From Bacteroidales bacterium (lineage in GTDB: Bacteria > Bacteroidota > Bacteroidia > Bacteroidales > UBA12077), in assembly GCA_028282585.1 (NCBI GenBank), contig JANQHR010000108.1, positions 1-33,563 on the forward strand: a stretch of DNA of 33,563 bases, given 5' to 3'. The notes beneath the pieces are model-generated. The model did no database searches, was not told the origin of the DNA, and worked only from the letters and a program-made list of their open reading frames with translations. How positions within the stretch are numbered: position 1 is the first letter of the stretch; each line of letters begins with the position of its first letter. Shown here one piece after another: positions 552-24,244 of this stretch. The position numbers were made by a program, and so were the translations under genes.

Positions 552-555
552 AATT

Positions 556-915: not shown

Positions 916-917
916 GT

Positions 918-2102
918 TTAAATAAATTTCATGCTTACTTCTTTCAAAAACTTGTTTTCCAAAGTTTCTGCAATACGACGAACAACCGTTCTTCTTATTT
1001 CAAGTTCGACAGGTAAGTTTGGATCCTGGTGGGCGATATTTACCCTTGTGCCTATTACAAAATGTATTTCATCGCTTTCCTTTAAAAGTTTAACTATTTG
1101 ATCGGCTGGTCCTTTGCCAAGTAAATAATTATTATTATAAACTTTAAGAATTTCGGACACTTTACTAAGCGTAAGAATACCTTCGGTAACCAAGTCTATT
1201 CCTGTCATATAAGCTACTGGAGGAAGGTCGGGATCATGGAACTCAAAGCTGTCTTCAATTTCAAGTTCTAATTCACGTGAAATAATGTCAGCGGTAGTTG
1301 CCCCGCTTAGAATCTTTTTTCCTTCAAAATTCTTAACAACTTCAGCTAGTTTTATATCTCTTTCTTCTTCGTAAGGAGGTCCTGTACAGAGCAGTAATTT
1401 TCTAGGTTCTCTAAAATAAATGGCTGCACAACTGGTATCATCTTTTGCGTGGTAACCATCATTTTGGTAAGCCATATTAACAATTTTTCCAGCCAATTTA
1501 TTTGCAGATATTTCAGGGTTGTTGGCAACTAATCTTTTTGTAAAATCTTCCAGATTATCATGCCCCCAACCAAAAGGATATTTTGCACTTCCCATACCTG
1601 ATTGTGTAATTCCATCGCTGCAAAATATAATTCGATCTTCCTTTTGTGCATGAAAAGTACAGTTTTTTAATATTTTACCAGCATTTTGTTCTCCTTCCAT
1701 AACAACAGTTTGCCACTTAGGATCAAATATCTGATCTTTTCTGATTATTATAGTTTCGGGATTGTCATATTCCAATATATTTGTTTTACCGTCTTCTTCA
1801 ATATCAATTATAGTAAACGTTGAGTAGCTAATGTGTCGCTTGCTGCAAACGGGCAAGGTATTCATAATAATTTCAGCAATACGGTTAACATCTTTATGCT
1901 CCTTAGTGAAATTTAATGCCATGGTCGAGGTAAGTGTAGCTAGCATATTAGCTTTAACTCCGTGCCCCATGCCATCCGATAGAACTACAATGGTCCGTTC
2001 TTCAGCTTTTATTCTTTCTGAAAGAAATACATCACCACAGATCCTTTCACCTTCGTGATTTTTCTGAATGCAGTCAACTTCTATGTAAAACTTATTATCC
2101 AT
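918..2102 (-). CDS. SpoIIE/PP2C-family Ser/Thr phosphatase, HfsC-like
   Basis: Metal-binding motifs CGD, VLSDGMGHG, CSDGI and KDDTS; C-terminal extension (GPP, DLVTEGILTL, NIAHQ) as in hydrogenase-linked phosphatases; lies directly downstream of a hydS-like gene. Confidence 0.9.
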   Translation of the reverse strand: MDNKFYIEVDCIQKNHEGERICGDVFLSERIKAEERTIVVLSDGMGHGVKANMLATLTSTMALNFTKEHKDVNRIAEIIMNTLPVCSKRHISYSTFTIIDIEEDGKTNILEYDNPETIIIRKDQIFDPKWQTVVMEGEQNAGKILKNCTFHAQKEDRIIFCSDGITQSGMGSAKYPFGWGHDNLEDFTKRLVANNPEISANKLAGKIVNMAYQNDGYHAKDDTSCAAIYFREPRKLLLCTGPPYEEERDIKLAEVVKNFEGKKILSGATTADIISRELELEIEDSFEFHDPDLPPVAYMTGIDLVTEGILTLSKVSEILKVYNNNYLLGKGPADQIVKLLKESDEIHFVIGTRVNIAHQDPNLPVELEIRRTVVRRIAETLENKFLKEVSMKFI

Positions 2103-2227
2103 CTTTTATTTTCAAATCCTAAACTGTGAAAAATCGACAATCTTTTGCAATTACTTACCGCATAGTATTTCACGTTTATAACTAATTTACTATTTGGACA
2201 ATTTACGAATACACATTTAAGCCATCA

Positions 2228-4087
2228 TTATTCCTTCTTGCTCATTTTATATAATTCGATTATTGAATTTAGCATCTGCTCAGTTTCCGATGCTCCTTCT
2301 CCTAATAAGAACCCTATCTTTTGCACCATTGCCAGATTTTTATCTATTACATCAGTAACCCTTTTTAGAACTTCTTCTTTTCTAACTTCAGGTGAATACA
2401 TATCTCTAAAAACCGCTCCAAGTATTTTTCCTTTTCTAATTGTAAATATGGATAGATTTAATAGTTTATCTTCAATATGAATATCTCTATTTAATATATT
2501 TTCATTTGATGAGAAAACATGAGAAAACATATTGTAAATATTAAACGGAAGCAGAGTTTTAAGGTCGGCTCCTATTAAACCTGGAATAACTTCATCTATT
2601 GATTTGGCTTCTTCACCTAAGAGTTCTATAAAACTATTGTTGGAATGTATTATTTTTAAGTTTTTATCTAATATTACAACTCCTGACGGTAGTTTCTGAA
2701 GCATTCTGCCAATTGTATCCGAGGCCTCTTTTGCTGCTTCTTTTTCTTTTTGTGCAACCTCTTCAGATTCTTGTAAGGCCTTTTGGGTTTGAGCTAATTT
2801 CTCGTTTGTAGATTTTAATGCCTTGATGTAATCGTGCCTGTTTCTTAGTGAGAATGTTAAACACATATCTACCTTCGCTAATCCTTTAGCTACCGCAACA
2901 GCAAAATCCCGACAGGTATTATATCCGCATGCATTACATCCCAGGTTAGGATTTTTACCTTCTTTCCCAATAGCCTTTAATATTTCATTAATTCTATCTT
3001 CAGAAGGCATTTCGATTCTCTGATTATCATTTATAAAGTTTCTTGAATAATCAAGATTCCAAAATTTATCAATTTCTTCTTGCCACTTTTCTTTATTGAA
3101 GTTTTTAAGTCTTTTATTAGCATAATCAGTTACTCGGGTTCTTCGAATAAATTTTTTCCCGGCTTTAGAGGTTCCGGGCCCCATTAAACAACCTTCACAG
3201 TAATAAAGATTGAAATGTTTCCTAATGGTATCAATATCCTTATGAAACTGCTTTGTAGCATTTAGCATATTTGCCTTACCCTCGGCAGTTATGACTTCAC
3301 CTTCCAGTAAATTTTCGCTAATATTAGCTGCTTGCAACAGGCCATTCGCTATTGGGAATAATGAACCTTTATAACCAATCGGTGGGTCAAATTCAGCAAA
3401 TTCTACTTTACTTTCTTTAATCTTAAATTCATCAAATAACTCGCGTAGTTCATGAAAAGTTAAAACTGAGTCGATTTTTCCATCTCCATCAAATAAGTTA
3501 GCTTCATCCTTACTGTCAATACATGGGCCGATATAAATCACCTTTATATCATTTCCATAAAGTTCTCTTACAATCTTAGATGTTGCAACCATAGGTGAAA
3601 CTAATGGAGCCAGATTTTCAACCAATTCCGGTTGAAATTTTTGAACATGAGAAACAACCACCGGACAAGCCGTTGTTATATAATATTTTCCTTTAAAGTT
3701 TTTAAATAATTCGGCATATTTAAATGCTACGATATCTGCTCCAAATGAAACTTCGTTGACATAATCAAAACCTAGTGATTTAATCATTTGAACAAATTTG
3801 CGGTAATCGGTTATATCATGGAATTCACCTGAAATACTTGGAGCTACGATAGCAACTTTTTTATTTTTCGATTTTAATATCTCCTTTGTAGCTGATTTTG
3901 AATCGCGATATGTTATAGCATTTTCAGGGCATACAGAAGTGCAACTTCCACATCCGATACATCGATCCGGAATTATTCTCGCATAATCTCTGTTAGCTTT
4001 TACCTCTATTGCATTTACAGGGCAAACTCTTACACATGAATAACTTAAGTTACATTTATCTTTTAATATCTCAACTAATGGTTTCAT
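2228..4087 (-). CDS. hydS: Group C (sensory, phosphatase-linked) [FeFe]-hydrogenase with FeS and PAS domains, HydS/HfsB-like
   Basis: N-terminal ferredoxin motifs (CNLSYSCVRVCP, CIGCGSCTSVCP); H-domain motifs APS, TTACP, GPCIDSKDE and NLYYCEGCLMGPG; CNACGYNTC...C FeS domain; coiled coil; PAS (LQKLPSGVVILD...N.SF); C-terminal QKIGFLLGE helix. Confidence 0.85.
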   Translation of the reverse strand: MKPLVEILKDKCNLSYSCVRVCPVNAIEVKANRDYARIIPDRCIGCGSCTSVCPENAITYRDSKSATKEILKSKNKKVAIVAPSISGEFHDITDYRKFVQMIKSLGFDYVNEVSFGADIVAFKYAELFKNFKGKYYITTACPVVVSHVQKFQPELVENLAPLVSPMVATSKIVRELYGNDIKVIYIGPCIDSKDEANLFDGDGKIDSVLTFHELRELFDEFKIKESKVEFAEFDPPIGYKGSLFPIANGLLQAANISENLLEGEVITAEGKANMLNATKQFHKDIDTIRKHFNLYYCEGCLMGPGTSKAGKKFIRRTRVTDYANKRLKNFNKEKWQEEIDKFWNLDYSRNFINDNQRIEMPSEDRINEILKAIGKEGKNPNLGCNACGYNTCRDFAVAVAKGLAKVDMCLTFSLRNRHDYIKALKSTNEKLAQTQKALQESEEVAQKEKEAAKEASDTIGRMLQKLPSGVVILDKNLKIIHSNNSFIELLGEEAKSIDEVIPGLIGADLKTLLPFNIYNMFSHVFSSNENILNRDIHIEDKLLNLSIFTIRKGKILGAVFRDMYSPEVRKEEVLKRVTDVIDKNLAMVQKIGFLLGEGASETEQMLNSIIELYKMSKKE

Positions 4088-4101
4088 ACAATTAATAGAA
4101 A

Positions 4102-4347
4102 TTAATCTTGGGCAAATAGGTTATTTAATAAAAAGATCACATTTTCAGGTGTAATATTCTGATATTCCTTATTATCAACTTTTAAAATTGGACCGTTTGC
4201 ACAATTTCCATAGCAATGATTTCCATGGAAAAAAACTTTATCTTCCAATTGATGTTCCTTTACATAATCTTTAATAATCTTTACAGTATTTTTATTTCCT
4301 CTTGAAAAGCAGGAACTACCCAAACATATTATAATCTCTTTTTTCAT
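4102..4347 (-). CDS. Thioredoxin-like [2Fe-2S] protein (NuoE-like small subunit), HfsA-like
   Basis: CLGSSC...CYGNC..GP (CxxxxC...CxxxC) in 81 aa; first gene of the hfsABC-like operon. Confidence 0.88.
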   Translation of the reverse strand: MKKEIIICLGSSCFSRGNKNTVKIIKDYVKEHQLEDKVFFHGNHCYGNCANGPILKVDNKEYQNITPENVIFLLNNLFAQD

Positions 4348-4535
4348 TTAAAGGTTTTATCAAAATTCCAGATACAATATTTTTCTTGCAAGATAGCTAA
4401 AATTATGATTGTTGCTGTAAAATATGATAGTATGTTATAAAATATGTAAATATGTGGATTTATTTAATATATTCGATTTGTATGATAATGTGTTTATTAT
4501 TAGATAGTTGTTGTTTTATTGGCTTTGCTATCGTA

Positions 4536-4570
4536 TTGTTAATAAAATAACAGTGTTCCAAAATTAACAA
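4536..4570. promoter_or_regulatory. Tandem Rex-type operators
   Basis: TTGTTAA-TAAA-ATAACAG (4536-4553) and GTGTTCC-AAAA-TTAACAA (4553-4570) resemble TTGT(G/T)AA-N4-TT(C/A)ACAA; rex is in the downstream operon. Confidence 0.7.
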
Positions 4571-4578
4571 TAAATGAT

Positions 4579-4586
4579 TATATTTG
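4579..4586 (+). promoter_or_regulatory. Bacteroidota sigma-70 -7 element for the hydCBA operon
   Basis: TATATTTG matches TAnnTTTG exactly, 30 nt upstream of the ATG at 4617. Confidence 0.65.
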
Positions 4587-4616
4587 CATCAATAGTTCTT
4601 AAATAAAAAATGGTTT

Positions 4617-5078
4617 ATGTCACGTTTAGATGAAATACTGGAAAAGTATCCATTTGTTCAAAGAGATAATCTTATTCCAATATTACAAGACATTCAGGAT
4701 GAGTTTGGATGCTTGACTGAAGAGGCCATTGTGAAAGTGGGGAAATATTTAAACCTACCAACAGCCAAAATATTCGGTTTGGCAAGTTTTTATAATCATT
4801 TTCGATTTGTAAAGAAGGGTAAATATCATATTAAAGTTTGTAATGGAACTTCTTGTCATGCTTACGGAAATACTTTAATCTTAAATGAGCTCGAAAAGAA
4901 ACTTGAGATAAAAAGTGATGAAGTAACTAAGGATGGTAATTTTAGTATTGAAGAATCAACATGTATGGCTTCATGCGGTAATGGACCTGTAGTTTCTGTT
5001 AATGAAAGATATTATACAAATGTAGATATCGAAAAGCTTGTTGAAATAATTGATTATTATAAAGGTTTGGAAGAATAA
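4617..5078 (+). CDS. hydC: NuoE-like [2Fe-2S] subunit of a HydABC-type hydrogenase (HydC/HndA-like)
   Basis: LIPILQDIQ helix, ASFYNHF, and CNGTSC...CMASC..GPV [2Fe-2S] ligands. Confidence 0.9.
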   Translation: MSRLDEILEKYPFVQRDNLIPILQDIQDEFGCLTEEAIVKVGKYLNLPTAKIFGLASFYNHFRFVKKGKYHIKVCNGTSCHAYGNTLILNELEKKLEIKSDEVTKDGNFSIEESTCMASCGNGPVVSVNERYYTNVDIEKLVEIIDYYKGLEE

Positions 5079-5081
5079 ATT

Positions 5082-7028
5082 ATGTCTCAAGATAGTATTA
5101 AATATAAAGAGTTCTTGATATCTAATGTACTTAAGGCAAAGGAAGAAATTCAAGATAAAAATGTTTTAAACACGCTACAATTTTTACAGCGTAAAAGAAT
5201 TGAAAAACCAATTATTACAATATGTATAAGTTCGTCTTCAATAGTAACAGACGTTTATTATTTAAAAGAAAATATTGAGGAATACCTTATTGAAAGAGAT
5301 ATAGACGCAGAATTAATTCCGGTTGGAAGCATTGGCTTATGTAGCTTAGAAGTTATTTTATCGGTTCAGTTACCTGGTAAAACACAGCTTTTCTATAAAC
5401 AGGTATCACCTGAAAATATTATTTCAATTCTTGATGGAACATTTAACAATTTTATTCAAGAAGAAAATGTATTAGGACAACAAAGAAATGAACTGCAAGA
5501 TCCATGGGAAAATGTACCATTTTTGGATGAGCTTGCTTATTTTAAAAATCAACAAAGATTAGTACTGAATAATTGTGGATTTGTTAATCCCGAATCTATT
5601 GAAGAATATATTGCACAGGGTGGATATAAATCTTTTTATAGCGCTATAAATTTTCATACCCCGGAAGAGATTTGTGATATAATTGAGAATAGCGGACTTC
5701 GTGGGCGTGGAGGAGAAGGTTTTTCTACAGGAAAAAAATGGAAAATTGCTTATCAAACACCTAGTGATCAGAAATATCTGATTTGTAATGCAGGGGAAAG
5801 TGATCCTGGGGCATTTATGGAACGTTTACTTATGGAAAGTGACCCTCACAAATTAATTGAAGGAATTGCCATTTCTGCTTATGCGATTGGAGCACAAAAA
5901 GCTTATATATATATTGAATCAGAATATGAACTTTCAATCGAAAGAATAAAAAATGCAATTATACAGGCAAAGCAATATGGAATTCTAGGTCACGATATAT
6001 TTGAAAGTGGATATAATTTTGAAGTTATAATAAAGAAAGGGGCAGGAGCTTACGTTTGTGGAGAAGAAACTGCTTTAATCAGTAGTTTGGAAGGTAAACG
6101 TGGAAAACCGCATTCTAAACCGCCGTATCCGGCAGTTCAAGGATTATATAACCAACCAACGGTTGTAAACAACGTTGAGACGCTTGTAAACATTCCAGTT
6201 ATCATAGAAAAAGGTGCTGAATGGTTTAGTTCAGTTGGGACAAAAGAAAGCAAAGGAACCAAAGTATTTTCCGTATCGGGGAAGGTAGATCTGAATTGTC
6301 TTGCAGAGGTTGAAATGGGAACCAAATTGAGAGATGTAATTTTCAGGGTTGCCGGGGGAATGAAAAATGGAAAACGATTTAAAGCAGCCCATATTGGAGG
6401 ACCATCCGGAGGTAGCTTAGCAGAAAATCATCTTGATACAATTATTGATTATGAGTCGGTAATGTTAACAGGAGTTTCTCTGGGATCAGCAGGAATAGTT
6501 GTTTTGGATGAAGATAACTGTGTTATTGATATGGTAAAATATTTCATGAATTTCATGAAAAAGGAAAGCTGTGGAATTTGTATACCTTGTAGAGAAGGAA
6601 CAAGAAGAATGCATGAAATACTTGAGAACATTAGTAAACGTCCGGTTGATGAAAACGGACATACAACTTTACAGCGCTTTAAAGGAGTAATGCAACTGGA
6701 GAGTCTGGCTGAAGTTCTAAAAGATACATCAATGTGTGGATTAGGCCGTAAAGCATCTAATCCGGTATTAAGCACGTTAAAATGGTTCAGAGAAGAATAT
6801 GAGGATCATATTTTTGAGCGTAAATGTGAAGCAGGAATATGTCAGGAGTTAAGAACATTTGAAATAGATGTGGAAGCTTGTACAGGATGTACTCTATGTG
6901 CTAAAAAATGTCCTACCGGGGCTATTTTTGGTACAGCCAGAAATGCTCATTTCGTTGTTCAGGATAAATGTATAGGATGCGGAATTTGTTTCGAAACTTG
7001 TAAGTTTTCTGCGGTAATAAGTAAATAG
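5082..7028 (+). CDS. hydB: NuoF-like FMN/NADH subunit of a HydABC-type hydrogenase (HydB/HndC-like), divergent
   Basis: SGLRGRGG, CNAGESDPGAFM, YVCGEETALISSLEG, GGPSG, ESCGICIPCREG...MCGLG, HIFERKCEAGIC and two C-terminal CxxCxxCxxxC motifs. Confidence 0.9.
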   Translation: MSQDSIKYKEFLISNVLKAKEEIQDKNVLNTLQFLQRKRIEKPIITICISSSSIVTDVYYLKENIEEYLIERDIDAELIPVGSIGLCSLEVILSVQLPGKTQLFYKQVSPENIISILDGTFNNFIQEENVLGQQRNELQDPWENVPFLDELAYFKNQQRLVLNNCGFVNPESIEEYIAQGGYKSFYSAINFHTPEEICDIIENSGLRGRGGEGFSTGKKWKIAYQTPSDQKYLICNAGESDPGAFMERLLMESDPHKLIEGIAISAYAIGAQKAYIYIESEYELSIERIKNAIIQAKQYGILGHDIFESGYNFEVIIKKGAGAYVCGEETALISSLEGKRGKPHSKPPYPAVQGLYNQPTVVNNVETLVNIPVIIEKGAEWFSSVGTKESKGTKVFSVSGKVDLNCLAEVEMGTKLRDVIFRVAGGMKNGKRFKAAHIGGPSGGSLAENHLDTIIDYESVMLTGVSLGSAGIVVLDEDNCVIDMVKYFMNFMKKESCGICIPCREGTRRMHEILENISKRPVDENGHTTLQRFKGVMQLESLAEVLKDTSMCGLGRKASNPVLSTLKWFREEYEDHIFERKCEAGICQELRTFEIDVEACTGCTLCAKKCPTGAIFGTARNAHFVVQDKCIGCGICFETCKFSAVISK

Positions 7029-7037
7029 TCAAGAGTT

Positions 7038-8762
7038 ATGCCAATCGAAATAGAGGTAAATAATAAAAAAATACAAGCTAAAAAAGGTGAAACAGTTTTA
7101 GAAGTTTTAAACAGAGGTGGCATAAAGGTGCCGACTCTATGCAGAATGGAGGGATTTTCAGCTACAGGAGCTTGCAGAATGTGTGTGGTTGAGGTTGAAG
7201 GCAAATCAGATTTAATTCCATCGTGTTCTTATCCAATCGAAAAATCCTTAAAGATAAGAACGCACACCCCCCGGGTAATTAAGGCAAGAAAAATGCTTGT
7301 TGAACTGCTTCTTTCAAATCATCCTGATGATTGTTTATATTGTTCAAGTAATAGTAATTGTGAACTTCAGGATATGGCAGTTGAACTTAATATTCGAGAG
7401 AGAAGAATCTCAGGAGAAAAAACAAAAGCCAATATAGACCAATCGAGTCCGGGAATTGTTAGGGATCCGGCTAAGTGCATTTTATGTGGCCGTTGTGTTA
7501 GAGTATGCGAAGAAGTTCTTGGAGTTTCTACCTTTGATTTTAAAAAGCGGGGTCATAAAACTGGTATTGCAACCAGTATGGATAAGGACCTAAACTTTTC
7601 GAATTGCGTTCATTGCGGACAATGTTTAGTAGTTTGCCCAACAGGTTCTTTATATGAGAAAACAAATATTGATGTGGTCCAACAAATGTTGAACAATAGA
7701 GATATTGAAGTAATTGTTCAATATTCTCCAAGTATTGCTATTTCTATTGCAGATGAGTTGGGGTTACGTCCCGGGAAAGACTTAAACGGAATTTTAAATG
7801 CAGTTCTGAGGAGAATGGGTTTCAGTAAAATTTTTGATACTTCTTTTGCTGCGGATATTGCAATTTTTGAGCAAGCTGCAGAATTAGCCGATAGGATTAA
7901 AAATGAAGAAAATATCCCAATGATAAGCAGTTGCTGCCCGGCATGGATTAAGCATATGGAGCAATCATTCCCTGATATGACGGATCATGTTTCGACAACA
8001 AAATCACCACAACAAGTTTTAGGAGCTTTGATTAAGACTTATTATGCTGATAAAGAGGATATTTCTCCTGAAAAGATTTTCTCAGTATCAATTATGCCAT
8101 GTACCGCAAAAAAATTCGAATCGCAACGTGAAGAAATGACGCAGCGTGGAATTTCCGACATAGATGCAGTATTAACTACTCGTGAACTATTGAAATTAAT
8201 CAGACTTTATGGTATAGATGTACATTCTATTGATGAAGAAATATCAGATAATCCATTTAATACAAGAAGCTCGGCTTCTAAATTAGTTTCAGTTTCAGGA
8301 GGACTATCAGAGAGTGTGGCAAGAACGTTATGTTACCATTTAACGGGTAAAGAATTACCAGATCTTAAAATTACAAAACTTAGAGGAACAAAAGAGTTTC
8401 GCAAGACTGATATTAAGGTAGGAAAGCATAATGTCGGCTTTGCTGTAATTAATGGACTGGGAGCGGCTAGTAACTTGATATCAGATATTAGAGAAGGTAA
8501 AAGTAAGGTTCAATTTATTGAAATTATGGCTTGTCCGGGAGGATGTATTAATGGAGGAGGACAGCCCTATGATACCGATGAGAAATCATTAAAGAACAGA
8601 TCAAAGGCTATATATGACCTGGATGAAAAAGAAGCTATTAAAGTAGCCCATAAAAACCCTAATTTAATTAATTTATACAAAGAGTTTTTAGGAGAACCTT
8701 TCGGAGAAAAGGCTGTTAAATTATTGCATACCAGCTATAAAAAACGTGATGTTTTATTATAA
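7038..8762 (+). CDS. hydA: Group A3-like [FeFe]-hydrogenase large subunit (HydA/HndD-like), divergent active site
   Basis: [2Fe-2S] (C...GACRMC...SC), His-ligated [4Fe-4S] (HPDDCLYCSSNSNC), 2x[4Fe-4S]; H-cluster motifs SSCCPAW, MPCTAKKFE and EIMACPGGCINGGG; C-terminal LLHTSY. Confidence 0.92.
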   Translation: MPIEIEVNNKKIQAKKGETVLEVLNRGGIKVPTLCRMEGFSATGACRMCVVEVEGKSDLIPSCSYPIEKSLKIRTHTPRVIKARKMLVELLLSNHPDDCLYCSSNSNCELQDMAVELNIRERRISGEKTKANIDQSSPGIVRDPAKCILCGRCVRVCEEVLGVSTFDFKKRGHKTGIATSMDKDLNFSNCVHCGQCLVVCPTGSLYEKTNIDVVQQMLNNRDIEVIVQYSPSIAISIADELGLRPGKDLNGILNAVLRRMGFSKIFDTSFAADIAIFEQAAELADRIKNEENIPMISSCCPAWIKHMEQSFPDMTDHVSTTKSPQQVLGALIKTYYADKEDISPEKIFSVSIMPCTAKKFESQREEMTQRGISDIDAVLTTRELLKLIRLYGIDVHSIDEEISDNPFNTRSSASKLVSVSGGLSESVARTLCYHLTGKELPDLKITKLRGTKEFRKTDIKVGKHNVGFAVINGLGAASNLISDIREGKSKVQFIEIMACPGGCINGGGQPYDTDEKSLKNRSKAIYDLDEKEAIKVAHKNPNLINLYKEFLGEPFGEKAVKLLHTSYKKRDVLL

Positions 8763-8773
8763 AACTTAGTGAA

Positions 8774-10756
8774 ATGGCAAATAAGGACAGAGATTTAGTA
8801 TATACGCTTAAGAATAGATGCAGGGTCTGCTATACCTGCGTAAGAGAGTGTCCTGCCAAGGCTATTAAAATAATTAACGGGCAGGCAGAAGTATTAAACG
8901 AACGTTGTATTGTTTGTGGGAATTGTACTAAAGTCTGCAGTCAGGGGGCTAAAGTATATTTAAATACGGAAGATCGTTTTCATAGCTTATTAAAAAATGG
9001 AAGAAAGAATGTAGCTATTGTTGCACCAAGTTTTCCTGCAGAGTTTAAGGAAATCTCCAATCATAAAATTTTTGTTTCAATGATTAGGGCAATCGGTTTT
9101 GATGTAGTTTCTGAAGTTGCTTTTGGTGCTGATTTAGTTGCAAAAAAATATCGGGAATTAATTGATAAAGGAAGTGATAAATGCTTTATATCATCTGACT
9201 GCCCGGCAGTGGTTTCATATATTGAGCATTATCATTCAGCTTTAGTAAAAGATTTGGTACCCATTGCTTCTCCTATGGTAGCTATGTCAAGAGTTGTAAA
9301 AAAGAAATATGGTGATGACATTAATCTGATTTTTATAGGCCCTTGTGTTGCAAAAAAATCAGAGTCAGATGAAGTAGATGAAATGATTACTTTCACCGAA
9401 TTAAGAAATGTATTTGAAGAGAAAAGAATTACACAAAAAACTGTAGTTCCAACCGAATTTGATCCTCCGCTCGGAGGAAAAGGTGCTATTTTTCCGGTTA
9501 GCAGGGGATTGTTACAAACCGCAGGAATAACAGATGATGTATTTGATGGGAATATTATTGTTGCAGAAGGAAGAACAAATTTTCAAGAAGCAATTAAAGA
9601 ATTTGAGGATGGTTTATTACGTTCTCATCATTTGGAGTTATTAAGTTGTGAAGGTTGTATTATGGGACCCGGAATGTCGAGTAAAGGAAAGCATTATGCT
9701 CGCAGAATTTTAGTTAATAATTATGTTCAAAAAAAGATTAATAGCTTAAATGAAGCCGATTGGCAAAAGCAAATTGATGAGTACATTGATATTGATTTAT
9801 CAGCAGAATTTGAACCTAAGCATAAATCATTGAAATTTCCAGATTGGAGTGAGATTAAGAAAGTATTGGAATCTATGGGAAAACTTACACCAAAAGATCA
9901 TTTAAATTGTGGTGCTTGTGGTTACGAATCATGCGAAGATCATGCAACAGCTATTGTACAGGGGTTAGCTGAAAATGAAATGTGTTTGCCATTTACTATA
10001 GAAAAGCTACACAATTCTGTAAATGAACTTGCAATAACCAATGATAAGCTTACTTCAATGCAGCAAGCCTTGAAGCAATCAGAGAAAATGGCAAGTATGG
10101 GGCAGTTATCAGCAGGTATTGCACATGAATTAAATAATCCACTTGGAGTAGTAATCATGTATGCGAATATATTGTTAGATGAAGCCAAGAAGGATTCTGC
10201 TATTTATAAGGATCTTAAATTGATTGTTGACCAAACAAACAGATGCAAAAAAATTGTGGGTGGATTATTAAATTTTGCAAGAAAGAATCAGGTTAACTCA
10301 TCAAAAATTGATATTATAAAACTGGCAAAAGAAAGTGTTCAGGCTGTGGTGGTTCCGAAGCAAATAGAAGTGTTAATTGATCAGGAGAATGTTAAGGATC
10401 CTCATGCAATGATCGATCATGAGCAAATGATGCAGGTTTTAACTAATTTGATCAAGAATGCGATTGACGCAATGCCCGATGGTGGAAAAATTGACATCAA
10501 GCTTGAAGATAATAACGATGAAGTGTTTTTTATAGTAAAGGATACAGGAATTGGAATCGATAAAGAGGCAATAGATAAAATATTTGAACCATTTTATACA
10601 ACAAAAGGAATTGGAATGGGAACAGGATTAGGACTTGCAACAACTTATGGTATTGTTAAAATGCATAAAGGAAAAATTACAGTATTTTCAAATAATGATC
10701 CTGAAAAAGAACCAACAGGAACAGAATTTAAGGTATCAATTCCAAGGTTTCAGTAA
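8774..10756 (+). CDS. Group C (histidine kinase-linked) [FeFe]-hydrogenase domain fused to HisKA-HATPase_c
   Basis: 2x[4Fe-4S] (CRVCYTCVRECP, CIVCGNCTKVC); H-domain SSDCP, GPCVAKKSE and ELLSCEGCIMGPG; CGACGYESC...C FeS domain; coiled coil; H-box AHELNNPL, N-box NLIKNA, DTGIG, FEPFYTTK and GTGLGL. Confidence 0.9.
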   Translation: MANKDRDLVYTLKNRCRVCYTCVRECPAKAIKIINGQAEVLNERCIVCGNCTKVCSQGAKVYLNTEDRFHSLLKNGRKNVAIVAPSFPAEFKEISNHKIFVSMIRAIGFDVVSEVAFGADLVAKKYRELIDKGSDKCFISSDCPAVVSYIEHYHSALVKDLVPIASPMVAMSRVVKKKYGDDINLIFIGPCVAKKSESDEVDEMITFTELRNVFEEKRITQKTVVPTEFDPPLGGKGAIFPVSRGLLQTAGITDDVFDGNIIVAEGRTNFQEAIKEFEDGLLRSHHLELLSCEGCIMGPGMSSKGKHYARRILVNNYVQKKINSLNEADWQKQIDEYIDIDLSAEFEPKHKSLKFPDWSEIKKVLESMGKLTPKDHLNCGACGYESCEDHATAIVQGLAENEMCLPFTIEKLHNSVNELAITNDKLTSMQQALKQSEKMASMGQLSAGIAHELNNPLGVVIMYANILLDEAKKDSAIYKDLKLIVDQTNRCKKIVGGLLNFARKNQVNSSKIDIIKLAKESVQAVVVPKQIEVLIDQENVKDPHAMIDHEQMMQVLTNLIKNAIDAMPDGGKIDIKLEDNNDEVFFIVKDTGIGIDKEAIDKIFEPFYTTKGIGMGTGLGLATTYGIVKMHKGKITVFSNNDPEKEPTGTEFKVSIPRFQ

Positions 10757-10770
10757 TAAAATTAAAGATT

Positions 10771-11166
10771 ATGGCAGAGAACAAAAAGCAAATACTAATA
10801 GCCGATGACGATGAGGATTACCTATTCCAAATGGAGGCTTATATTAGAAGTTTTGGTTTTGATGTAATAAAAGCTGAAAGTCAGAAAGAAGCTGAAATAT
10901 TAATCGAAAATACAAAACCGGATTTGGCTATTTTTGATTTAATGATGGAAAGGGATGATAGCGGTTTTATGCTTTGCTATAAGATGAAAAGAAAACATCC
11001 TGATGTGCCAATTATTTTAGCAACTGCCGTAGCTTCTGAGACAGGGATTTCATTCGGAGTAAACTCTCCAACTGATCAGCAATGGATAAAAGCGGATTTG
11101 TACTTAGAAAAAGGAATCAGAAAAGATCAGTTGCACAGAGAAATTAATAAATTATTAAAGTTATAA
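10771..11166 (+). CDS. Single-domain response regulator (receiver only)
   Basis: ILIADDD, phospho-acceptor DLMM, IILAT and YLEKG; no output domain. Confidence 0.88.
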   Translation: MAENKKQILIADDDEDYLFQMEAYIRSFGFDVIKAESQKEAEILIENTKPDLAIFDLMMERDDSGFMLCYKMKRKHPDVPIILATAVASETGISFGVNSPTDQQWIKADLYLEKGIRKDQLHREINKLLKL

Positions 11167-11182
11167 CATAACAAGTCAATTA

Positions 11183-11286
11183 AAAGAATAATGAATATCG
11201 ATTAACGAATATTGATTCTAGAAGTAAATATTTAATTTTTGAAATTACTTCATCATTCTTAAATCGTTAATCGTCATTCTATAATC
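11183..11286. repeat. Inverted array of degenerate 7-nt repeats (long imperfect hairpin)
   Basis: Left arm AAAGAAT AATGAAT ATCGATT AACGAAT ATTGATT CTAGAAG; right arm CTTCATC ATTCTTA AATCGTT AATCGTC ATTCTAT AATC. CGATTAACGA/TCGTTAATCG and GAAGTAA/TTACTTC are exact reverse complements. Confidence 0.7.
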
Positions 11287-11304
11287 AAATATATTTAATA
11301 TTAG

Positions 11305-12423
11305 ATGAAGAAATTAAATGTTTTAGTTGTGGATGATGAGCCGGGGATTCGTTCCGGGGTGAGTAGAATATTAAGTAATTTTACGGTTAGCTATCCTTTT
11401 ATGGATACTGATATTGGATTTAATATACTTGAGGCAGAAACAGGTGAGAAGGCAATTGATATTATTGATTCAGAACAAATTGAGATTGTTCTTTTAGATA
11501 ATAAATTACCTGGTATACAGGGAACTGATGTTCTTGATTTTATCAATAAAAATAAACCGGACATTCTGGTAATGATGATAACTTCTTATGCATCATTGGA
11601 GTTGGCAATTAAAGCAACTAACATTGGAGCTCATGATTTTATTCCTAAACCATTTACACCACAGGAGTTAAAATCGTCTTTAGAAAATGTATCCAAGCAT
11701 CTTTTCCTTAGAGGGATGACAAAGAAAATGAATAAAGAAGGAAAAGAAATCCGTTATCAGTTTTTATCAGTATTGTCGCATGAATTAAAAGCACCCTTAA
11801 ACGCGATAGACGGATATTTACGTATGATGCAAAATAAAGAAGTGGGTGATAATATTGAGGATTATCAACAGATGATTGATAGATCTTTAAATAGAATAAA
11901 AGGCATGCGAAATCTTATTATGGATTTGTTGGACTTGACCAAAATTAGATTAGAAAAGAAAACAGAACGGTTAGAGAATGTAAAAATTAAAGATATTGCA
12001 CAAAATGCAATTGAAGCTATCAACCCTTATGCAATTCAAAAAGATGTAACAATTAATTTAATAGATGAAAGTAATTGTATATTGAATGCAGACCCAAGTG
12101 ATATGGAGATCATTTTTAATAATTTGATATCTAATGCTGTAAAATATAACAAAAACGGGGGTTCCGTTGATGTAAAACTTAAATGTAATAAGGGCAATTT
12201 GATAATAATTGTGAGTGATACAGGTATAGGAATGACGAATGAAGAAACAACAAAACTGTTTAATGAATTTTTCAGGGTTAAAAGTGAGCAAACTAAACAT
12301 ATTACGGGAAGCGGATTAGGGCTTTCCATAGTAAAAGGTATAGTTAACTTATATAAGGGCGAAATTAGTGTGGAAAGTAAGATTGGTGAAGGTTCTACTT
12401 TCCGTATAATATTGCCAGTGTAA
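11305..12423 (+). CDS. Hybrid receiver-histidine kinase (REC-HisKA-HATPase_c), cytoplasmic
   Basis: VLVVDDE, LLDNKLPG and FIPKPF receiver; SHELKAPL H-box, NLISNAVKY, DTGIG and GSGLGL. Confidence 0.92.
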   Translation: MKKLNVLVVDDEPGIRSGVSRILSNFTVSYPFMDTDIGFNILEAETGEKAIDIIDSEQIEIVLLDNKLPGIQGTDVLDFINKNKPDILVMMITSYASLELAIKATNIGAHDFIPKPFTPQELKSSLENVSKHLFLRGMTKKMNKEGKEIRYQFLSVLSHELKAPLNAIDGYLRMMQNKEVGDNIEDYQQMIDRSLNRIKGMRNLIMDLLDLTKIRLEKKTERLENVKIKDIAQNAIEAINPYAIQKDVTINLIDESNCILNADPSDMEIIFNNLISNAVKYNKNGGSVDVKLKCNKGNLIIIVSDTGIGMTNEETTKLFNEFFRVKSEQTKHITGSGLGLSIVKGIVNLYKGEISVESKIGEGSTFRIILPV

Positions 12424-12463
12424 TTTTTTTTTGTAAATTGACCAGTTAAATAATTTGATTGAT

Positions 12464-13090
12464 ATGAATAGACTTCCAGAAAAAACGATAGGAAGATTAA
12501 GTGAATACAGAAGAACTTTATTGAATTGTTTAGCCGATGGCAAAACACATATTTATTCACATGAATTAGCAAATTTACACAATATTACTGCCGTTCAGGT
12601 TCGAAGGGATATTATGCTAATTGGATATTCAACCACCTTAAAGAAAGGTTATGATGTTAAAGCATTAATTGATGTTATCGGTGATATTATTGATACCGAA
12701 AAAGGGTTGAATGCTGCAGTTATTGGAATAGGTAATTTAGGACGAGCTATAACAACTTACTTTAAAGGCAAAAGAACAAAATTGAAAATTGCCGCTACAT
12801 TTGATACTGATCCGGAGAAAACAAATAGAGTTATATCAGGTGTTAAGTGTTACCCAATGGGTGAATTAAATAATGTTATAAAGGAGCAGGATATTAAGAT
12901 AGGTATATTAACTGTACCTCCAGAAGATGCTGCAGCTGTCTCGGAATCTTTGATTATGGCAGGTATAAAAGGCATTCTGAATTATACATCAACACCTTTG
13001 AATGTTTCTCCAAATGTGTACCTCGAGGAATACGATATGATTACGTCTTTGGAGAAAGTAGCTTATTTTGTAAAACAAACTGAGGAATAG
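12464..13090 (+). CDS. rex: Redox-sensing transcriptional repressor Rex
   Basis: LPEKTIGRLSEY...SHELA...QVRRD...GYDV winged helix, GIGNLG Rossmann motif, AGIKGILNY. ATG at 12464 preferred over TTG at 12455. Confidence 0.92.
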   Translation: MNRLPEKTIGRLSEYRRTLLNCLADGKTHIYSHELANLHNITAVQVRRDIMLIGYSTTLKKGYDVKALIDVIGDIIDTEKGLNAAVIGIGNLGRAITTYFKGKRTKLKIAATFDTDPEKTNRVISGVKCYPMGELNNVIKEQDIKIGILTVPPEDAAAVSESLIMAGIKGILNYTSTPLNVSPNVYLEEYDMITSLEKVAYFVKQTEE

Positions 13091-13121
13091 TAGCCTAGAA
13101 TATGATTATGTTGTTTTGAAG

Positions 13122-14054
13122 ATGCAGGTACATAGAAGCTTTGAAAGTTTAAATCAAATTAAGAATCCGGTAGTTACAACAGGAACTTTTGATGGTGTTC
13201 ATTTAGGCCATAAAGTTATTATTGATCGTTTAAATAAATTGGCCAAAAACATTAGGGGTGAATCAGTTTTAATAACATTTCATCCGCATCCCAGAAGAGT
13301 CTTATATCCTGAAACGGCTGGTAAAAATCTAAAACTTATTAATTCACAAAATGAAAAGATACATTTGCTTGATAAAACTGGACTGGATCATCTGGTAATT
13401 ATTAACTTCACAAAGGAATTCTCTGAGACATCTTCGCATGAGTTTGTCGAAGGCATTTTACTAGCCAAACTAAAAGCAAAAATTATAATTGTTGGTTTTA
13501 ACCATCATTTTGGGCATAATCGTGAAGGTGATTATTCTTATTTATATGAATTAACCAAAACTCATGATTTTATTGTTGAAGAGATCCCGGAACAGGATTT
13601 GGAAAATGAAACGGTAAGTTCAACTATTATTCGTAAGGCATTGTTGGAAGGAAGAATTCAAAGAGCGAATGCTTATCTGGATCATTTTTTTATTGTAACC
13701 GGAAGGTTAAAAGATGGTCATCCAAAGTGTTTAGAAGTTGGATTTCCAACTCTTGAAATGATTGTGGAAGAAGATGTTAAGCTTGTTCCACCGGAAGGAG
13801 TATATGCTGTTAGCTTAACTTTGGAGGGTGTTAGATATCGTGGTATGTTAAATATTAAAACTTTTAAGGATTTAAATCTCCCCAGTATTCAGGTTCATTT
13901 ATTTGATTACGATTCAAATTTTAATTTAAAAAATAAAGAAGCTACAATTACTTTTCATAAAAGAATACGTGATGAACTTCAATTGAATAATGTACAAAGT
14001 CTTAAAAATCAATTAGAAAAGGATAAGGAAGTAATTGCAGAATTAATTTATTAA
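13122..14054 (+). CDS. ribF: RibF-family FAD synthetase; intact FMN adenylyltransferase domain, degenerate riboflavin kinase domain
   Basis: GTFDGVHLGH, TFHPHP, VGFNHHFG and VSSTIIR in the N-domain; GFPTLE, PPEGVY and IQVHLFD in the C-domain. ATG at 13122 preferred. Confidence 0.85.
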   Translation: MQVHRSFESLNQIKNPVVTTGTFDGVHLGHKVIIDRLNKLAKNIRGESVLITFHPHPRRVLYPETAGKNLKLINSQNEKIHLLDKTGLDHLVIINFTKEFSETSSHEFVEGILLAKLKAKIIIVGFNHHFGHNREGDYSYLYELTKTHDFIVEEIPEQDLENETVSSTIIRKALLEGRIQRANAYLDHFFIVTGRLKDGHPKCLEVGFPTLEMIVEEDVKLVPPEGVYAVSLTLEGVRYRGMLNIKTFKDLNLPSIQVHLFDYDSNFNLKNKEATITFHKRIRDELQLNNVQSLKNQLEKDKEVIAELIY

Positions 14055-23741: not shown

Positions 23742-23846
23742 TTATAGTTAGTTAAATTGTTATTAAATTCTGTTACGTAGAATAACATTACTAGTTTCGA
23801 TTACAATGTTAAAGTGATGTTATATTTTTACTATTTTTAAAAGTCC

Positions 23847-23871: not shown

Positions 23872-23894
23872 TAATCTTCGTAGTTACCTTTATA

Positions 23895-24233: not shown

Positions 24234-24244
24234 AATAACTGGTT

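Follow-up and report, generated by a model that had tools for sequence, protein, structure and literature searches.

A possible retuned third HydABC paralogue in an H2/redox signaling island of Bacteroidales

Does a HydABC-like trimer encoded between two sensory-type hydrogenases make H2 in bulk, or does it take part in signaling? An initial annotation of the locus proposed the second: an attenuated HydABC that serves as a redox input module for the kinase encoded with it. We analyzed the 33,563-nucleotide stretch of Bacteroidales DNA that carries the locus (the window), together with related loci.

Organization of the locus

The locus covers positions 918 to 14054 of the window. The genes hydC-hydB-hydA and those for HydHK, REC, REC-HK, Rex, and RibF run divergently from the genes for PP2C, HydS, and a small ferredoxin; gene calls agree with the initially annotated arrangement and its coordinates. 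Domain content was assigned from Pfam and NCBIfam profile matches.

918 to 2102, minus strand: PP2C (SpoIIE/RsbX/RsbU-type) Ser/Thr phosphatase (PF07228, 49.2 bits)
2228 to 4087, minus strand: HydS, putative sensory [FeFe]-hydrogenase of group C type (PF02906, 144.9 bits; PF04060, 35.1 bits)
4102 to 4347, minus strand: small thioredoxin-like [2Fe-2S] ferredoxin of 81 aa, encoded upstream of hydS (PF01257, 39.3 bits)
4348 to 4616, no strand: AT-rich intergenic region separating the divergent hydS and hydC operons (read from the sequence)
4617 to 5078, plus strand: HydC, NuoE-like [2Fe-2S] subunit, cluster C1 (PF01257, 158.6 bits)
5082 to 7028, plus strand: HydB, NuoF-like flavin/NAD subunit (PF01512, 156.8 bits; TIGR01959, 464.2 bits, below the cut-off of 558.65)
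7038 to 8762, plus strand: HydA, M3-type H-cluster subunit (best PDB match, T. kivui HydA1, 8a6t_A, 533 bits)
8774 to 10756, plus strand: HydHK, fusion of H-domain, FeS, and HisKA/HATPase (PF02906, 151.6 bits; PF04060, 36.3 bits; PF00512, 48.9 bits; PF02518, 89.5 bits)
10771 to 11166, plus strand: stand-alone REC (PF00072, 58.6 bits)
11305 to 12423, plus strand: REC-HisKA-HATPase hybrid kinase, REC-HK (PF00072, 81.9 bits; PF00512, 52.0 bits; PF02518, 93.4 bits)
12455 to 13090, plus strand: Rex, NADH/NAD+-responsive repressor (NF003995, 198.6 bits; cut-off, 126)
13116 to 14054, plus strand: RibF, FAD synthetase/riboflavin kinase (PF06574, 157.6 bits; PF01687, 74.2 bits)
21223 to 22650, plus strand: HydG, H-cluster maturase (TIGR03955, 510 bits; cut-off, 312)

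Pfam matches bear out the claim that three H-domain proteins (HydS, HydA, and HydHK) are encoded at one divergent locus. The packing from hydC to REC is as tight as had been described, with gaps of 3 (hydC-hydB), 9 (hydB-hydA), 11 (hydA-kinase), and 14 nt (kinase-REC). REC-HK, rex, and ribF, identified by their Pfam and NCBIfam matches, follow 3' of REC as annotated, after gaps of 138, 31, and 25 nt, in that order. A motif scan of the window found no Rex-box-like match within 4348 to 4616, and sigma-70 and terminator scans of the window gave matches only at chance level. HydG lies outside the conserved block and is context only.

Gene order was scored in nonredundant related loci with enough flanking sequence. 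HydA is encoded ≤300 nt upstream of HydHK in 79 of 84 loci, and REC ≤300 nt downstream in 88 of 89; the HydA-HydHK-REC arrangement is far beyond chance. REC-HK is encoded in 90 related loci, Rex in 76, and the small ferredoxin in 62; ribF, with which the conserved block ends, is found in 66. In a sample of 401 genomes from the order Bacteroidales, 158 encode HydHK.

The two sensory-type proteins are 40% identical over 476 aa. HydS comprises two [4Fe-4S] clusters, an H-domain, a CX2CX4CX16C FeS domain (PF04060), and a PAS-like C terminus; the initial label HydS-PAS holds for the H-domain, which is clear, but the PAS match is subthreshold (PAS_8, 21.5 bits; cut-off, 21.8). Judged against the sensory and catalytic H-domain patterns (the former taken from PMC10055695 and PMC8163306), HydS departs from the catalytic consensus (299A, 353G, and 358S) while keeping all four H-cluster Cys residues. 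HydHK has a sensory-type H-domain with 299D and 353G, and K358 is kept; its H-box His, N and G boxes, and H-cluster Cys residues are invariant across 61 sequences.

The best-conserved protein of the locus is PP2C (62 to 89% identity among related loci). Its predicted model (pLDDT, 89.5) has an N-terminal domain that resembles SpoIIE, RsbX, and RsbU structures and a conserved C-terminal alpha/beta domain of ∼160 aa that belongs to no known family. This second domain had no Pfam match and no Foldseek match at an E value of ≤0.001; its best VIA match was E. coli NuoG residues 373 to 532 (Z score, 10.5). No RsbW-type Ser/Thr kinase is encoded at the locus. In the translated small ferredoxin, the four Cys residues are arranged as C-x4-C and C-x3-C.

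HydA and HydB are altered in step

The alignment of the window HydA to CpI chains is gapless over 209 to 412, placing its Q279 at CpI E279 and its V417 at CpI F417; a third change is G418S. PDB chain 6gm0_A is itself a CpI variant with Q at column 279. Every Fe-S and H-cluster Cys ligand is kept, as are C299, K358, M353, M497, S319, E282, and R286. In sequence terms, the window HydA is a mild form of the alteration. The CpI E279Q variant is described as "largely inactive," with Gln "clearly" interrupting the proton path (PMC6226526); the window HydA might retain turnover, provided that a water molecule spans the gap at Q279. Column comparison upheld the claim that all three H-domains (HydS, HydHK, and HydA) deviate from the catalytic consensus. 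Against NF040763 (cut-off, 765 bits), the other two HydA paralogues of this genome reach 894.7 and 903.9 bits and the window HydA 723.9; among other kinase-linked HydA proteins, canonical ones score 802 and 805 and strongly altered ones 515 to 571.

HydC keeps the four Cys ligands of C1 in 82/82 orthologues. When aligned to solved HydB chains, the window HydB has lost the N-terminal [2Fe-2S] cysteines of cluster B5 and kept the ligands of B1 to B4. Its loops read GRGGEGFSTG and CNAGESDPG, compared with GRGGGGFPTG and CNADEGDPG in paralogues and solved homologues. The deviation first noted in the nucleotide loops is thus a remodeling of the flavin-site loops in which the Asp of CNADE becomes Gly. 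Together with the Gly-to-Glu change in the neighboring loop, this change could be compensatory, preserving FMN binding.

Q279 occurs without F417 in 19/19 same-genus orthologues, and the substitutions are therefore not strain specific. Among 89 kinase-linked HydA proteins across Bacteroidales, E279 is kept in 11 and absent in 78, C299 is kept in 33 and absent in 56 (Ala in 38), M353 is kept in 28 (Thr in 49, Ser in 6), K358 is kept in 40 and absent in 49 (Met in 39), and M497 is conserved in 85. HydA paralogues that lack kinase linkage are canonical in 26/26 cases, with E279 missing in none. The suggested co-occurrence of altered HydA with the fused kinase was thus found. Altered states are fixed within clades, e.g., A-S-T-M-A-E-M at positions 299/319/353/358/417/418/497, and the HydA proteins of sister clades are shifted further toward the published sensory pattern than that of the window.

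Column tallies by clade revealed that HydB changes in step with HydA. At the position of the NADE-loop Asp, canonical proteins have D (7/7), the window clade has G (19/19), and the strongly altered group mostly has K or R (40 of 45). The B5 cysteines are lost in the window clade and in the strongly altered group; retention of the B1 to B4 ligands, the B2 His among them, has a single exception, a Ser in the strongly altered group (n = 45).

The dN/dS ratios (0.03 to 0.14) indicate purifying selection, not decay: HydA values range from 0.026 to 0.135 in 12 pairs, and a canonical pair (0.066) falls inside the same range. The genome also has canonical hydABC elsewhere, as the initial annotation had supposed, in the form of two HydABC-type loci on one contig (C111), which can carry bulk H2 metabolism.

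Kinase linkage and alternative explanations

Kinase linkage seems to be older than the attenuation. In the 8 earliest-branching kinase-linked loci, HydA and HydB are fully canonical according to the tree and alignment columns, suggesting that the kinase was first linked to a normal enzyme; this branching order is provisional because the tree came from a quick search without a mixture model and raised long-branch warnings. Kinase-linked loci from other classes are fully canonical in 5/5 cases. With canonical HydA and HydB beside the same kinase, linkage alone fits a sensor located next to the enzyme that it regulates. The H-cluster site of HydHK is itself complete, and position 299 holds a proton-competent Asp, so H2 sensing would be possible without HydABC. 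One genome, G020 (98% complete), keeps hydCBA under purifying selection and has no full-length fused kinase. Thus, the idea of a sensory HydABC is supported only in part: it has fared well in its comparative predictions (conservation, kinase specificity, and selection), but obligate coupling of the trimer to the kinase is weakened by the sequences of the canonical early loci, HydHK's own H-domain, and G020.

Both the canonical kinase-linked loci and G020 also suit a regulated catalytic paralogue, in which HydCBA would be a working hydrogenase with altered kinetics (for example, slower, binding H2 more tightly, or biased differently) and the sensors would control its expression or activity. We regard this as a serious possibility that is nonetheless on the unlikely side. 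Published HydS-HydABC and BfuABC-T clusters are read in this way in the available text (PMC11406978, PMC8163306), the window HydA retains C299, K358, M353, M497, and all cluster ligands, HydG is encoded nearby, and the B2 His, which Schut et al. tie to bifurcating members in the text available, is present in HydB. Difficult to square with mere regulation are the inactivity reported for CpI E279Q, the loss of B5 and replacement of the flavin-site Asp in every clade member, and the two canonical HydABC loci that the genome already holds; the loss of C299, K358, and S232 in sister clades is more than kinetic tuning.

We consider it improbable that HydCBA is an Fe-S/flavin relay for HydHK in a BfuABC-T holoenzyme, with the HydHK H-domain reacting and the HydA site vestigial. 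Such a relay would agree with the retention in HydHK of K358 and a nearly invariant Asp299, since Asp is named as the only functional replacement for C299 (PMC10055695), and with a 44-row clade in which HydA lacks C299 and K358 and has S232 replaced, the four cluster cysteines being kept. Precedent comes from NiFe-Bfu, whose HydA has a [4Fe-4S] cluster instead of an H-cluster (PMC9304861), and Zheng and Huang name the sensory hydrogenase the "T subunit" (PMC11406978). However, the H-cluster pocket of the window HydA is nearly intact, G020 lacks HydHK, and canonical HydA proteins adjoin the same kinase.

A redundant third paralogue that is drifting toward loss under relaxed selection would fit the somewhat lower conservation of HydA (63 to 77%, versus 72 to 90% for HydHK and 71 to 87% for HydB at the same loci), scattered extra changes (e.g., C299F and M497Q in one genome), a HydA split into two matches at one locus (L072), and a stop inside hydHK at another (L083), but we think this explanation very improbable given dN/dS ratios in the range of the canonical pair, intact frames in nearly all of ∼90 loci, invariant Fe-S ligands, and altered states conserved within clades.

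Proposed role of HydCBA

A third HydABC that is altered yet under selection and lies between two sensors and a phosphorelay suggests signaling over bulk H2 production. The reading that we favor, with about even confidence, is that HydCBA is a retuned third paralogue in an H2/redox signaling island, of low turnover and regulatory rather than devoted to bulk H2. It builds on direct observations (anatomy, conservation, restriction to the kinase-linked paralogue, selection, and two canonical HydABC loci). Two putative group-C-type sensors flank HydCBA, HydS with PP2C on one side and HydHK followed by REC and REC-HK on the other. The trimer would be retuned away from fast bifurcation, with Q279 predicted to interrupt the proton path and F417 lost, and the loss of B5 and the remodeled flavin-site loops would make HydB part of this retuning. 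HydCBA would then be a low-turnover module that slowly equilibrates with H2, NAD(H), and ferredoxin for regulation. It might be a redox input read by the cotranscribed kinase and relay, or else an electron sink or source that sets and resets the neighboring sensor hydrogenases; a separate NADH/NAD+ readout would come from Rex. The sensory-type TmHydS and TamHydS still turn over H2 at low rates (PMC10055695, PMC8163306), and by analogy "attenuated" is not the same as "noncatalytic."

Comparison with known systems

The initial annotation knew of no characterized sensory HydABC. Similar clusters of BfuABC with a sensory subunit T are published; we found no report in the literature of coordinated sensor-like remodeling of HydA and HydB. 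BfuABC-T (also BfuABCT or BfuTABC) is described from Hydrogenedentota (Zheng and Huang 2024, PMC11406978). Like the window, it pairs a group A3 HydABC/BfuABC operon with an extra group C sensory [FeFe]-hydrogenase gene, located either 5' of bfuC or immediately 3' of bfuA, whose product has a PAS or histidine-kinase domain. Order B-A-C occurs there too, and the second HydABC paralogue of this genome shares it. The P1 to P3 motifs vary, and the consensus retains the first P1 Cys; the available text does not mention loss of proton-path residues, K358, B5, or the flavin-site Asp, which are lost in the window clade or its sisters. Unlike BfuABC-T as described, the window has both sensor types in one locus, plus PP2C, REC/REC-HK, Rex, and RibF.

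HydS of Thermotoga maritima (TmHydS) belongs to group C, M2f, and TamHydS to group D, M2e (PMC10055695, PMC8163306). As far as these are described, HydS and HydHK of the window share with them two [4Fe-4S] clusters, an H-domain, the CX2CX4CX16C motif, a residue other than Cys at 299, Gly at 353, and an adjoining group A trimer. Altered HydA proteins of the clade gain changes of the same type (C299A, M353T/S, and loss of E279/E282). The window HydA differs in being an M3-type trimer subunit with NuoG-like N-terminal clusters, not M2e or M2f, and its changes are limited to E279Q, F417V, and G418S.

In Firmicutes, the HydS-PP2C-kinase-Rex model of Ruminococcus albus (Zheng et al. 2014, as cited in PMC5707799 and PMC9304861) and hfsABCD of Thermoanaerobacterium saccharolyticum (PMC5707799) likewise have an H-domain/PAS protein as proposed H2 sensor that signals via Ser/Thr phosphorylation enzymes, Rex in the same redox decisions, and a small gene preceding the hydS-like gene. 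The available descriptions do not include a histidine-kinase fusion, REC relay, or altered HydABC. In the cultured Bacteroidales strain Petrimonas mucosa ING2-E5A, a histidine-kinase-linked group C1 [FeFe]-hydrogenase is reported, from annotation, to lie near a four-gene Hnd-type bifurcating hydrogenase (PMC7768429).

A precedent for a HydA without H2 chemistry is NiFe-Bfu (HydABCSL) of Acetomicrobium mobile (Schut et al. 2022, PMC9304861), described as having a HydA in which a [4Fe-4S] cluster replaces the H-cluster and which relays electrons to another H2-activating subunit; its operon includes a histidine-kinase gene. NiFe-Bfu has a NiFe dimer as partner, is proven to bifurcate, and keeps all five BfuB clusters, whereas the window HydB lacks B5 and the trimer has a sensor kinase as its candidate partner.

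Gene content of the contig

The ORF list and domain scans bore out the gene map of the initial annotation. The window is an entire contig (C120) from an assembly of 4.89 Mb and 98% completeness, and its closest named records are MAGs labelled Bacteroidales or Bacteroidota. The features that concern us are listed below, with the divergent minus-strand genes in their order of transcription.

4102-4347, minus strand: thioredoxin-like [2Fe-2S] protein, 81 aa, transcribed first
2228-4087, minus strand: HydS, a group-C-type putative sensory [FeFe]-hydrogenase, 619 aa, with 2x[4Fe-4S], an H-domain, a PF04060 FeS domain and a sub-threshold PAS at the C-terminus
918-2102, minus strand: PP2C phosphatase, 394 aa, transcribed last
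4617-5078, plus strand: hydC, divergent from the minus-strand genes
5082-7028, plus strand: hydB
7038-8762, plus strand: hydA
8774-10756, plus strand: HydHK, an H-domain/FeS/HisKA/HATPase fusion, 660 aa
10771-11166, plus strand: REC protein
11305-12423, plus strand: REC-HisKA-HATPase protein
12455-13090, plus strand: rex
13116-14054, plus strand: ribF
21223-22650, plus strand: HydG, radical-SAM H-cluster maturase (TIGR03955, 510 bits), about 7 kb downstream of the locus

The gaps from hydC through the REC gene are 3, 9, 11 and 14 nt. Promoter and terminator scans gave no more than the shuffled expectation, with a sigma-70 promoter model that may not fit this phylum. Neither hydE nor hydF is among the annotated ORFs adjoining HydG; a serpin gene (411 aa, 19461-20696, PF00079, 386 bits) lies directly upstream of it. 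A plus-strand ORF of 119 aa (556-915), flanked by a truncated histone-deacetylase-family gene (39-551) and the PP2C gene, has no Pfam match, even at E≤1. The stretch from 23340 to 33561 carries unrelated genes: hemerythrin, DUF2147, a three-gene RND efflux system (OEP, AcrB-type and HlyD-type), a LytTR two-component pair and a TPR-His_kinase protein running off the contig end. The ORFs at 24-29 kb had been considered as a SusC/SusD pair; this was rejected, as they are the RND efflux genes.

HydABC of the window

The window encodes an M3-architecture HydA together with a NuoF-like HydB and a NuoE-like HydC (Pfam and NCBIfam); in PDB searches, the top matches were HydA1 and HydB chains from solved HydABC structures. 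Because the HMMER alignment of HydA with CpI chains is gapless over 209-412, window numbering equals CpI numbering there. The two substitutions first read from the sequence were recovered in an alignment in CpI register, with Gln at 279 and Val at 417. The proton-transfer pathway (C299, E279, S319, E282 and R286) is thus not intact, with Gln at 279 and the other four residues present; C300, M353, C355, K358, M497, C499 and C503 are present as well. C300, C355, C499, C503 and every accessory (N-terminal) cluster ligand are invariant in an alignment of 62 HydA sequences. The Gln in column 279 is also found in PDB chain 6gm0_A, a CpI variant. In the accessible text of Duan et al. (PMC6226526), CpI E279Q is “largely inactive” and the Gln “clearly interrupts” the proton path.

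Against NF040763, the model for NADH-dependent [FeFe] hydrogenase of group A6, window HydA scores 723.9 bits, below the cut-off of 765, whereas its own-genome paralogues score 894.7 and 903.9 bits and two canonical kinase-linked HydA proteins (those with unaltered catalytic-site residues) score 801.6 and 805.2 bits. The four Cys that serve as C1 ligands in HydC are kept in 82/82 sequences. Bifurcating or confurcating H2 turnover with NADH and ferredoxin is, for the window HydABC, only a class trait predicted from sequence.

HydB was said to deviate in its nucleotide loops, and it does: the window has GRGGEGFSTG and CNAGESDPG versus the canonical GRGGGGFPTG and CNADEGDPG, the forms found in solved HydB chains and in own-genome paralogues. 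Of the N-terminal cysteines kept by the paralogues, window HydB has just two. The NADE-loop Asp, which we take to participate in flavin binding, is replaced by Gly in 19/19 members of the window clade, and the neighboring Gly-rich loop gains Glu, Asp or Gln in all 19. This Asp is kept in 7/7 canonical kinase-linked loci (canonical HydA with a scorable HydB) and in the four own-genome paralogues examined. The seven canonical loci have the loops GRGGGGFP(T/S)G and CNADEGDPG and 3 or 4 N-terminal Cys in two scored stretches. Among 45 strongly altered loci, the Asp has become Lys in 34 and Arg in 6, and the N-terminal Cys pattern is not conserved. HydB thus changes in step with HydA across the canonical, window-clade and strongly altered groups.

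All three groups retain the ligands of Fe-S clusters B1 and B2 (with the His in H-x5-C-x4-C), as well as those of B3 and B4, with one Ser exception. In the window clade (19 loci), the N-terminal Cys pattern is not conserved, with 0-2 of 3 present; from the papers' wording, we infer that this N-terminal domain holds cluster B5. All Bfu enzymes keep B1-B5 and C1, and the B2 His is missing from non-bifurcating homologues, according to the accessible portion of Schut et al. 2022 (PMC9304861). Judged by these clusters, window HydABC falls short: the ligands of B1, B2 with its His, B3, B4 and C1 are present, and the N-terminal B5 cysteines are not conserved.

Distribution and conservation of the locus

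HydA matches in 41 related genomes fall into two bands, orthologues at 56-77% identity and two canonical paralogues at 38-45%. The substitutions are not strain-specific: Gln279 is present in 19/19 same-genus full-length orthologues and Phe417 in 0/19, and several of these orthologues also vary at M353, P354, K358, C299 or M497. Among 20 wider loci, 12 have all eleven genes in the same order, five are truncated at contig ends, one is missing just the small ferredoxin match, and two have deletions. Locus L044 (genome G011) lacks the kinase, REC, REC-HK and divergent genes; locus L052 (genome G020, 98% complete) lacks only the kinase fusion, with hydCBA kept and no full-length HydHK.

To place these loci in a broader frame, 185,579 species genomes were scanned with a HydHK alignment; at least 597 relatives were confirmed, of which the best 80 were kept. 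These 80, chosen by HydHK match, and 20 loci chosen by HydA match gave a non-redundant set of 96 after removal of four with HydA identical to loci already included. Among the sampled loci, which include the best 80 of at least 597, HydA lies ≤300 nt upstream of HydHK in 79/84 with enough flank, REC lies ≤300 nt downstream in 88/89, and divergent HydS and PP2C are found in 52/61. The same gene order recurs in about 90 loci from different assemblies, and we therefore reject an assembly artefact. In an even sample of 401 genomes from the order, HydHK occurs in 158 (97/236 genera); among 401 drawn from the phylum it occurs in 23, including other classes at 41-46% identity.

A few loci depart from this pattern. 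hydA and hydHK are not adjacent in L114 and L116 (about 3-3.5 kb between) and L130 (about 640 nt), which points to inserted sequence in these three. An internal stop in hydHK of L083 (4280-6229), a TGA in the hydHK match of G118:C15:46321-48288 and a hydA split into two matches in L072 (8286-9975) could be sequencing errors or real breaks. A MAG titled Thiohalospira sp. (L062) carries an 11-gene locus 72-85% identical to that of the window; its label is probably wrong, since all its tree neighbors are labelled Bacteroidales or Bacteroidota.

Graded alteration of kinase-linked HydA

We scored the window HydA and 88 other kinase-linked HydA proteins at ten columns.

Residues of 89 kinase-linked HydA proteins (window plus 88; sampled loci, including the best 80 of at least 597), CpI numbering
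Residue; kept; main replacements
E279; 11/89; L 26, Q 23, I 21
E282; 45/89
R286; 61/89
C299; 33/89; A 38, D 6
S319; 87/89
M353; 28/89; T 49, S 6
K358; 40/89; M 39
F417; 13/89; A 38, V 15
G418; 17/89; E 44
M497; 85/89

The proposal that the HydA signature accompanies the fused kinase stood up to this comparison: while so few kinase-linked proteins retain E279, 20/20 HydA paralogues without a kinase link from the same relatives are canonical at all scored columns, as are 6/6 more. In the accessible parts of PMC10055695 and PMC8163306, the hallmark of sensory [FeFe]-hydrogenases is C299 to Ala, M353 to Gly/Ser/Thr and altered E279, E282 and S319; the changes seen in kinase-linked HydA are of these kinds. 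In other classes, HydA is canonical in 5/5 kinase-linked loci.

We computed a quick maximum-likelihood tree from 95 HydA rows, with six canonical paralogues as the root. In it, kinase-linked HydA forms one clade (SH-aLRT 100) in which eight fully canonical proteins branch first. The altered forms lie in an 81-row clade (support 99) that contains the 20-row clade of the window (98) and a 44-row clade with a long stem (0.5 changes per column) carrying C299A, K358M, F417A and G418E. This branching order is provisional, because long-branch joins were flagged and the search was quick. HydS/PP2C is found in none of the six early canonical loci with enough flank to judge; altered HydA has it in 52/55 versus 0/6, a contrast that reflects very few evolutionary transitions and is not a statistic.

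A comparison of dN with dS had been proposed to separate purifying selection from decay, and it indicates purifying selection. Of 13 pairs, 12 gave a value of NG86 dN/dS for HydA, and these range over 0.026-0.135, or 0.055-0.135 in the seven pairs with dS <1; for the canonical pair L082-L087 it is 0.066. The remaining genes of the locus are in the same range or lower, except hydC in two pairs. On these low values we reject a pseudogene or decay reading and conclude that the altered states are selected.

Putative sensors, relay, phosphatase, and Rex

HydS and HydHK each have a 2x[4Fe-4S] N-terminal domain, an H-domain with the four Cys ligands and a C-terminal CX2CX4CX16C (PF02906, PF04060 and Cys columns). 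Their H-domains depart from the catalytic consensus, as originally noticed: HydS has 299A, 353G, 358S, 279K and 319A, and HydHK has 299D, 353G, 279K and 319V, with K358 present. Both agree with the sensory pattern as given in the available text of PMC10055695 and PMC8163306, with 299 not Cys, 353 small and the proton path altered. The signalling domain is clear in HydHK (HisKA, 48.9 bits; HATPase, 89.5 bits). For HydS, described before as a HydS-PAS protein, the H-domain part held, and the PAS matches fall just below cut-offs (PAS_8, 21.5 vs 21.8; PAS_9, 19.8 vs 27). We treat both proteins as putative sensors whose H2 response and signal transmission are predicted.

HisKA, HATPase_c and Response_reg matches of the relay exceed Pfam cut-offs. 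H451, N558/N562, D590/G592/G594 and the G616-L621 box do not vary among 61 HydHK sequences, and the receivers, read by eye from translations, carry the acidic-pocket and phospho-acceptor Asp. A complex prediction for full-length HydA with HydHK 1-420, from separate alignments, scored 0.01 against a mark of 0.32 and gives no verdict either way. Two kinases with a different N-terminus, G020:C37:13896-14651 (606 aa) and G009:C210:6021-6611 (553 aa), have C-terminal halves 51-54% identical to the kinase half of HydHK, which points to domain swapping on the same kinase core.

Of all the proteins of the locus, PP2C is the best conserved. The fold predicted for its N-terminal domain is that of the partner-switching phosphatases SpoIIE, RsbX and RsbU, and a PDB sequence search returned RsbX alone, as a weak match to this domain. 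Residues 235-394 (window 921-1400, minus strand) form a conserved, confidently modelled alpha/beta domain of about 160 residues (pLDDT 89.8), for which there was no Pfam match and no Foldseek match at E≤0.001; a protein atlas gave unnamed clusters only, in which homologues occur as separate proteins of about 150 aa. In VIA-align, the domain matches E. coli NuoG 373-532 best (7awt_G; Z 10.5, rmsd 3.1, 117 aligned residues), and FhcB and formate-dehydrogenase domains come next. The modelled likeness to a NuoG/formate-dehydrogenase-type alpha/beta domain is a lead only.

Elsewhere in the genome, contig C90 (about 200-2391, plus strand) encodes a complete tandem-PAS protein (about 315 aa) followed by a PP2C paralogue, with no H-domain. 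Identity is 46% between the PAS protein and the PAS-like C-terminus of HydS, and 48.6% between the paralogue and window PP2C over 394 aa; this pair supports the view that the PAS region and the phosphatase are functionally linked.

Rex scores above the cut-off of its curated model (NF003995, 198.6 bits vs 126). A gapped operator consensus had no exact match, and an 18-mer consensus with ≤3 mismatches gave 3 matches vs 5.5 expected, none in the intergenic regions of the locus; the Rex motif of Bacteroidales may differ.

Other HydABC loci in the genome

PF02906 matches occur at seven places in the genome. A second canonical hydABC had been sought elsewhere, and two further HydA genes were found on contig C111, each with HydB and HydC neighbors. 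These paralogues are 41-42% identical to window HydA and fully canonical (299 C, 353 M and 358 K in a genome H-domain alignment in CpI register), so that two canonical HydABC loci are available for bulk H2 metabolism. In several relatives (loci L047-L051, L056 and G008:C1:434188-465527), all three HydABC-type loci lie within about 30 kb, and in this hydrogenase island the canonical paralogue of B-A-C order directly adjoins the PP2C gene; in the window's own assembly, the loci are split between C111 and C120.

Two more H-domain proteins, C14:36503-37846 and C111:15151-16371 (both minus strand; 471 and 454 aa), end in the CX2CX4CX16C motif and are free of PAS and kinase domains. Residue 299 is Pro or Phe, and in overall type these proteins resemble M2e (group D-like). 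The one on C111 is a few kb from a canonical hydB-hydA-hydC locus, and a second Rex paralogue (31% identical) lies about 7 kb further along C111.

Proposed role and evolution of the kinase-linked HydABC

On the simplest account, the ancestral operon combined a normal HydCBA with a co-transcribed hydrogenase-kinase sensor and relay, of the type published as BfuABC-T, a BfuABC cluster with an extra sensory subunit (PMC11406978, in part). Within Bacteroidales, the HydCBA paralogue would then have been joined by HydS, PP2C and the small ferredoxin, and next retuned in the H-cluster pocket as well as at the flavin site, its two catalytic ends, with the Fe-S wire kept. A HydCBA so retuned would keep electron transfer and give up fast chemistry; a regulatory role fits best, a judgement for which we put the chances at about even. 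The complex may instead still be catalytic, with altered kinetics, and be merely regulated by the sensors. This rival is serious because the window's form is mild, and we consider it quite possible, if less probable than a regulatory role. By analogy with NiFe-Bfu, HydHK could be the H2-reactive subunit and HydCBA its relay, which for this window seems improbable.

The initial annotation had proposed a sensory HydABC that feeds the kinase. Conservation of the signature, its co-occurrence with the kinase, the two canonical loci and selection favor the idea in part; G020, which keeps hydCBA without a full-length HydHK, speaks against obligate coupling. More broadly, and only tentatively, we suggest that in a large Bacteroidales clade a whole bifurcating-type HydABC became a sensor-grade redox module, forming with HydHK a BfuABC-T “signalosome” of which the window is a mild early form. 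HydA would take on the sensory active-site pattern, with the extreme lineages losing C299 and K358 and replacing S232, and HydB would lose B5 and the flavin-site Asp, the Fe-S wire staying intact throughout. Such an assembly would weigh H2 against the NAD(H) and ferredoxin pools and pass the outcome to the His-Asp relay, with HydS/PP2C and Rex as parallel inputs.

Anaerobic Bacteroidales are major fermenters in sediments, digesters, and guts. The characterised sensory enzymes, TmHydS and TamHydS, have been studied in isolation. The locus offers a natural series, from canonical through mild (the window) to strongly sensor-like HydA/HydB, in the same operon frame with a hydrogenase-kinase fusion. 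With this series one can test whether complexes of the bifurcating type are able to serve as redox sensors, which second-sphere residues decide between catalytic and sensory behavior, and how these bacteria choose between H2 and other electron sinks. Genome surveys that take “group A3” genes for H2 producers may be counting many copies whose catalysis is not fast.

Full-text searches of the accessible literature found no account of sensor-like substitutions in HydA or HydB, or of their coordinated remodelling, inside a HydABC operon. Several components of the arrangement are already in print, in the portions of the sources available: group C sensors beside HydABC (PMC8163306), PAS- or kinase-bearing “T” genes in BfuABC clusters (PMC11406978), involvement of PP2C and Rex (via PMC5707799 and PMC9304861), and a kinase-linked group C1 enzyme near the Hnd genes in Petrimonas (PMC7768429).
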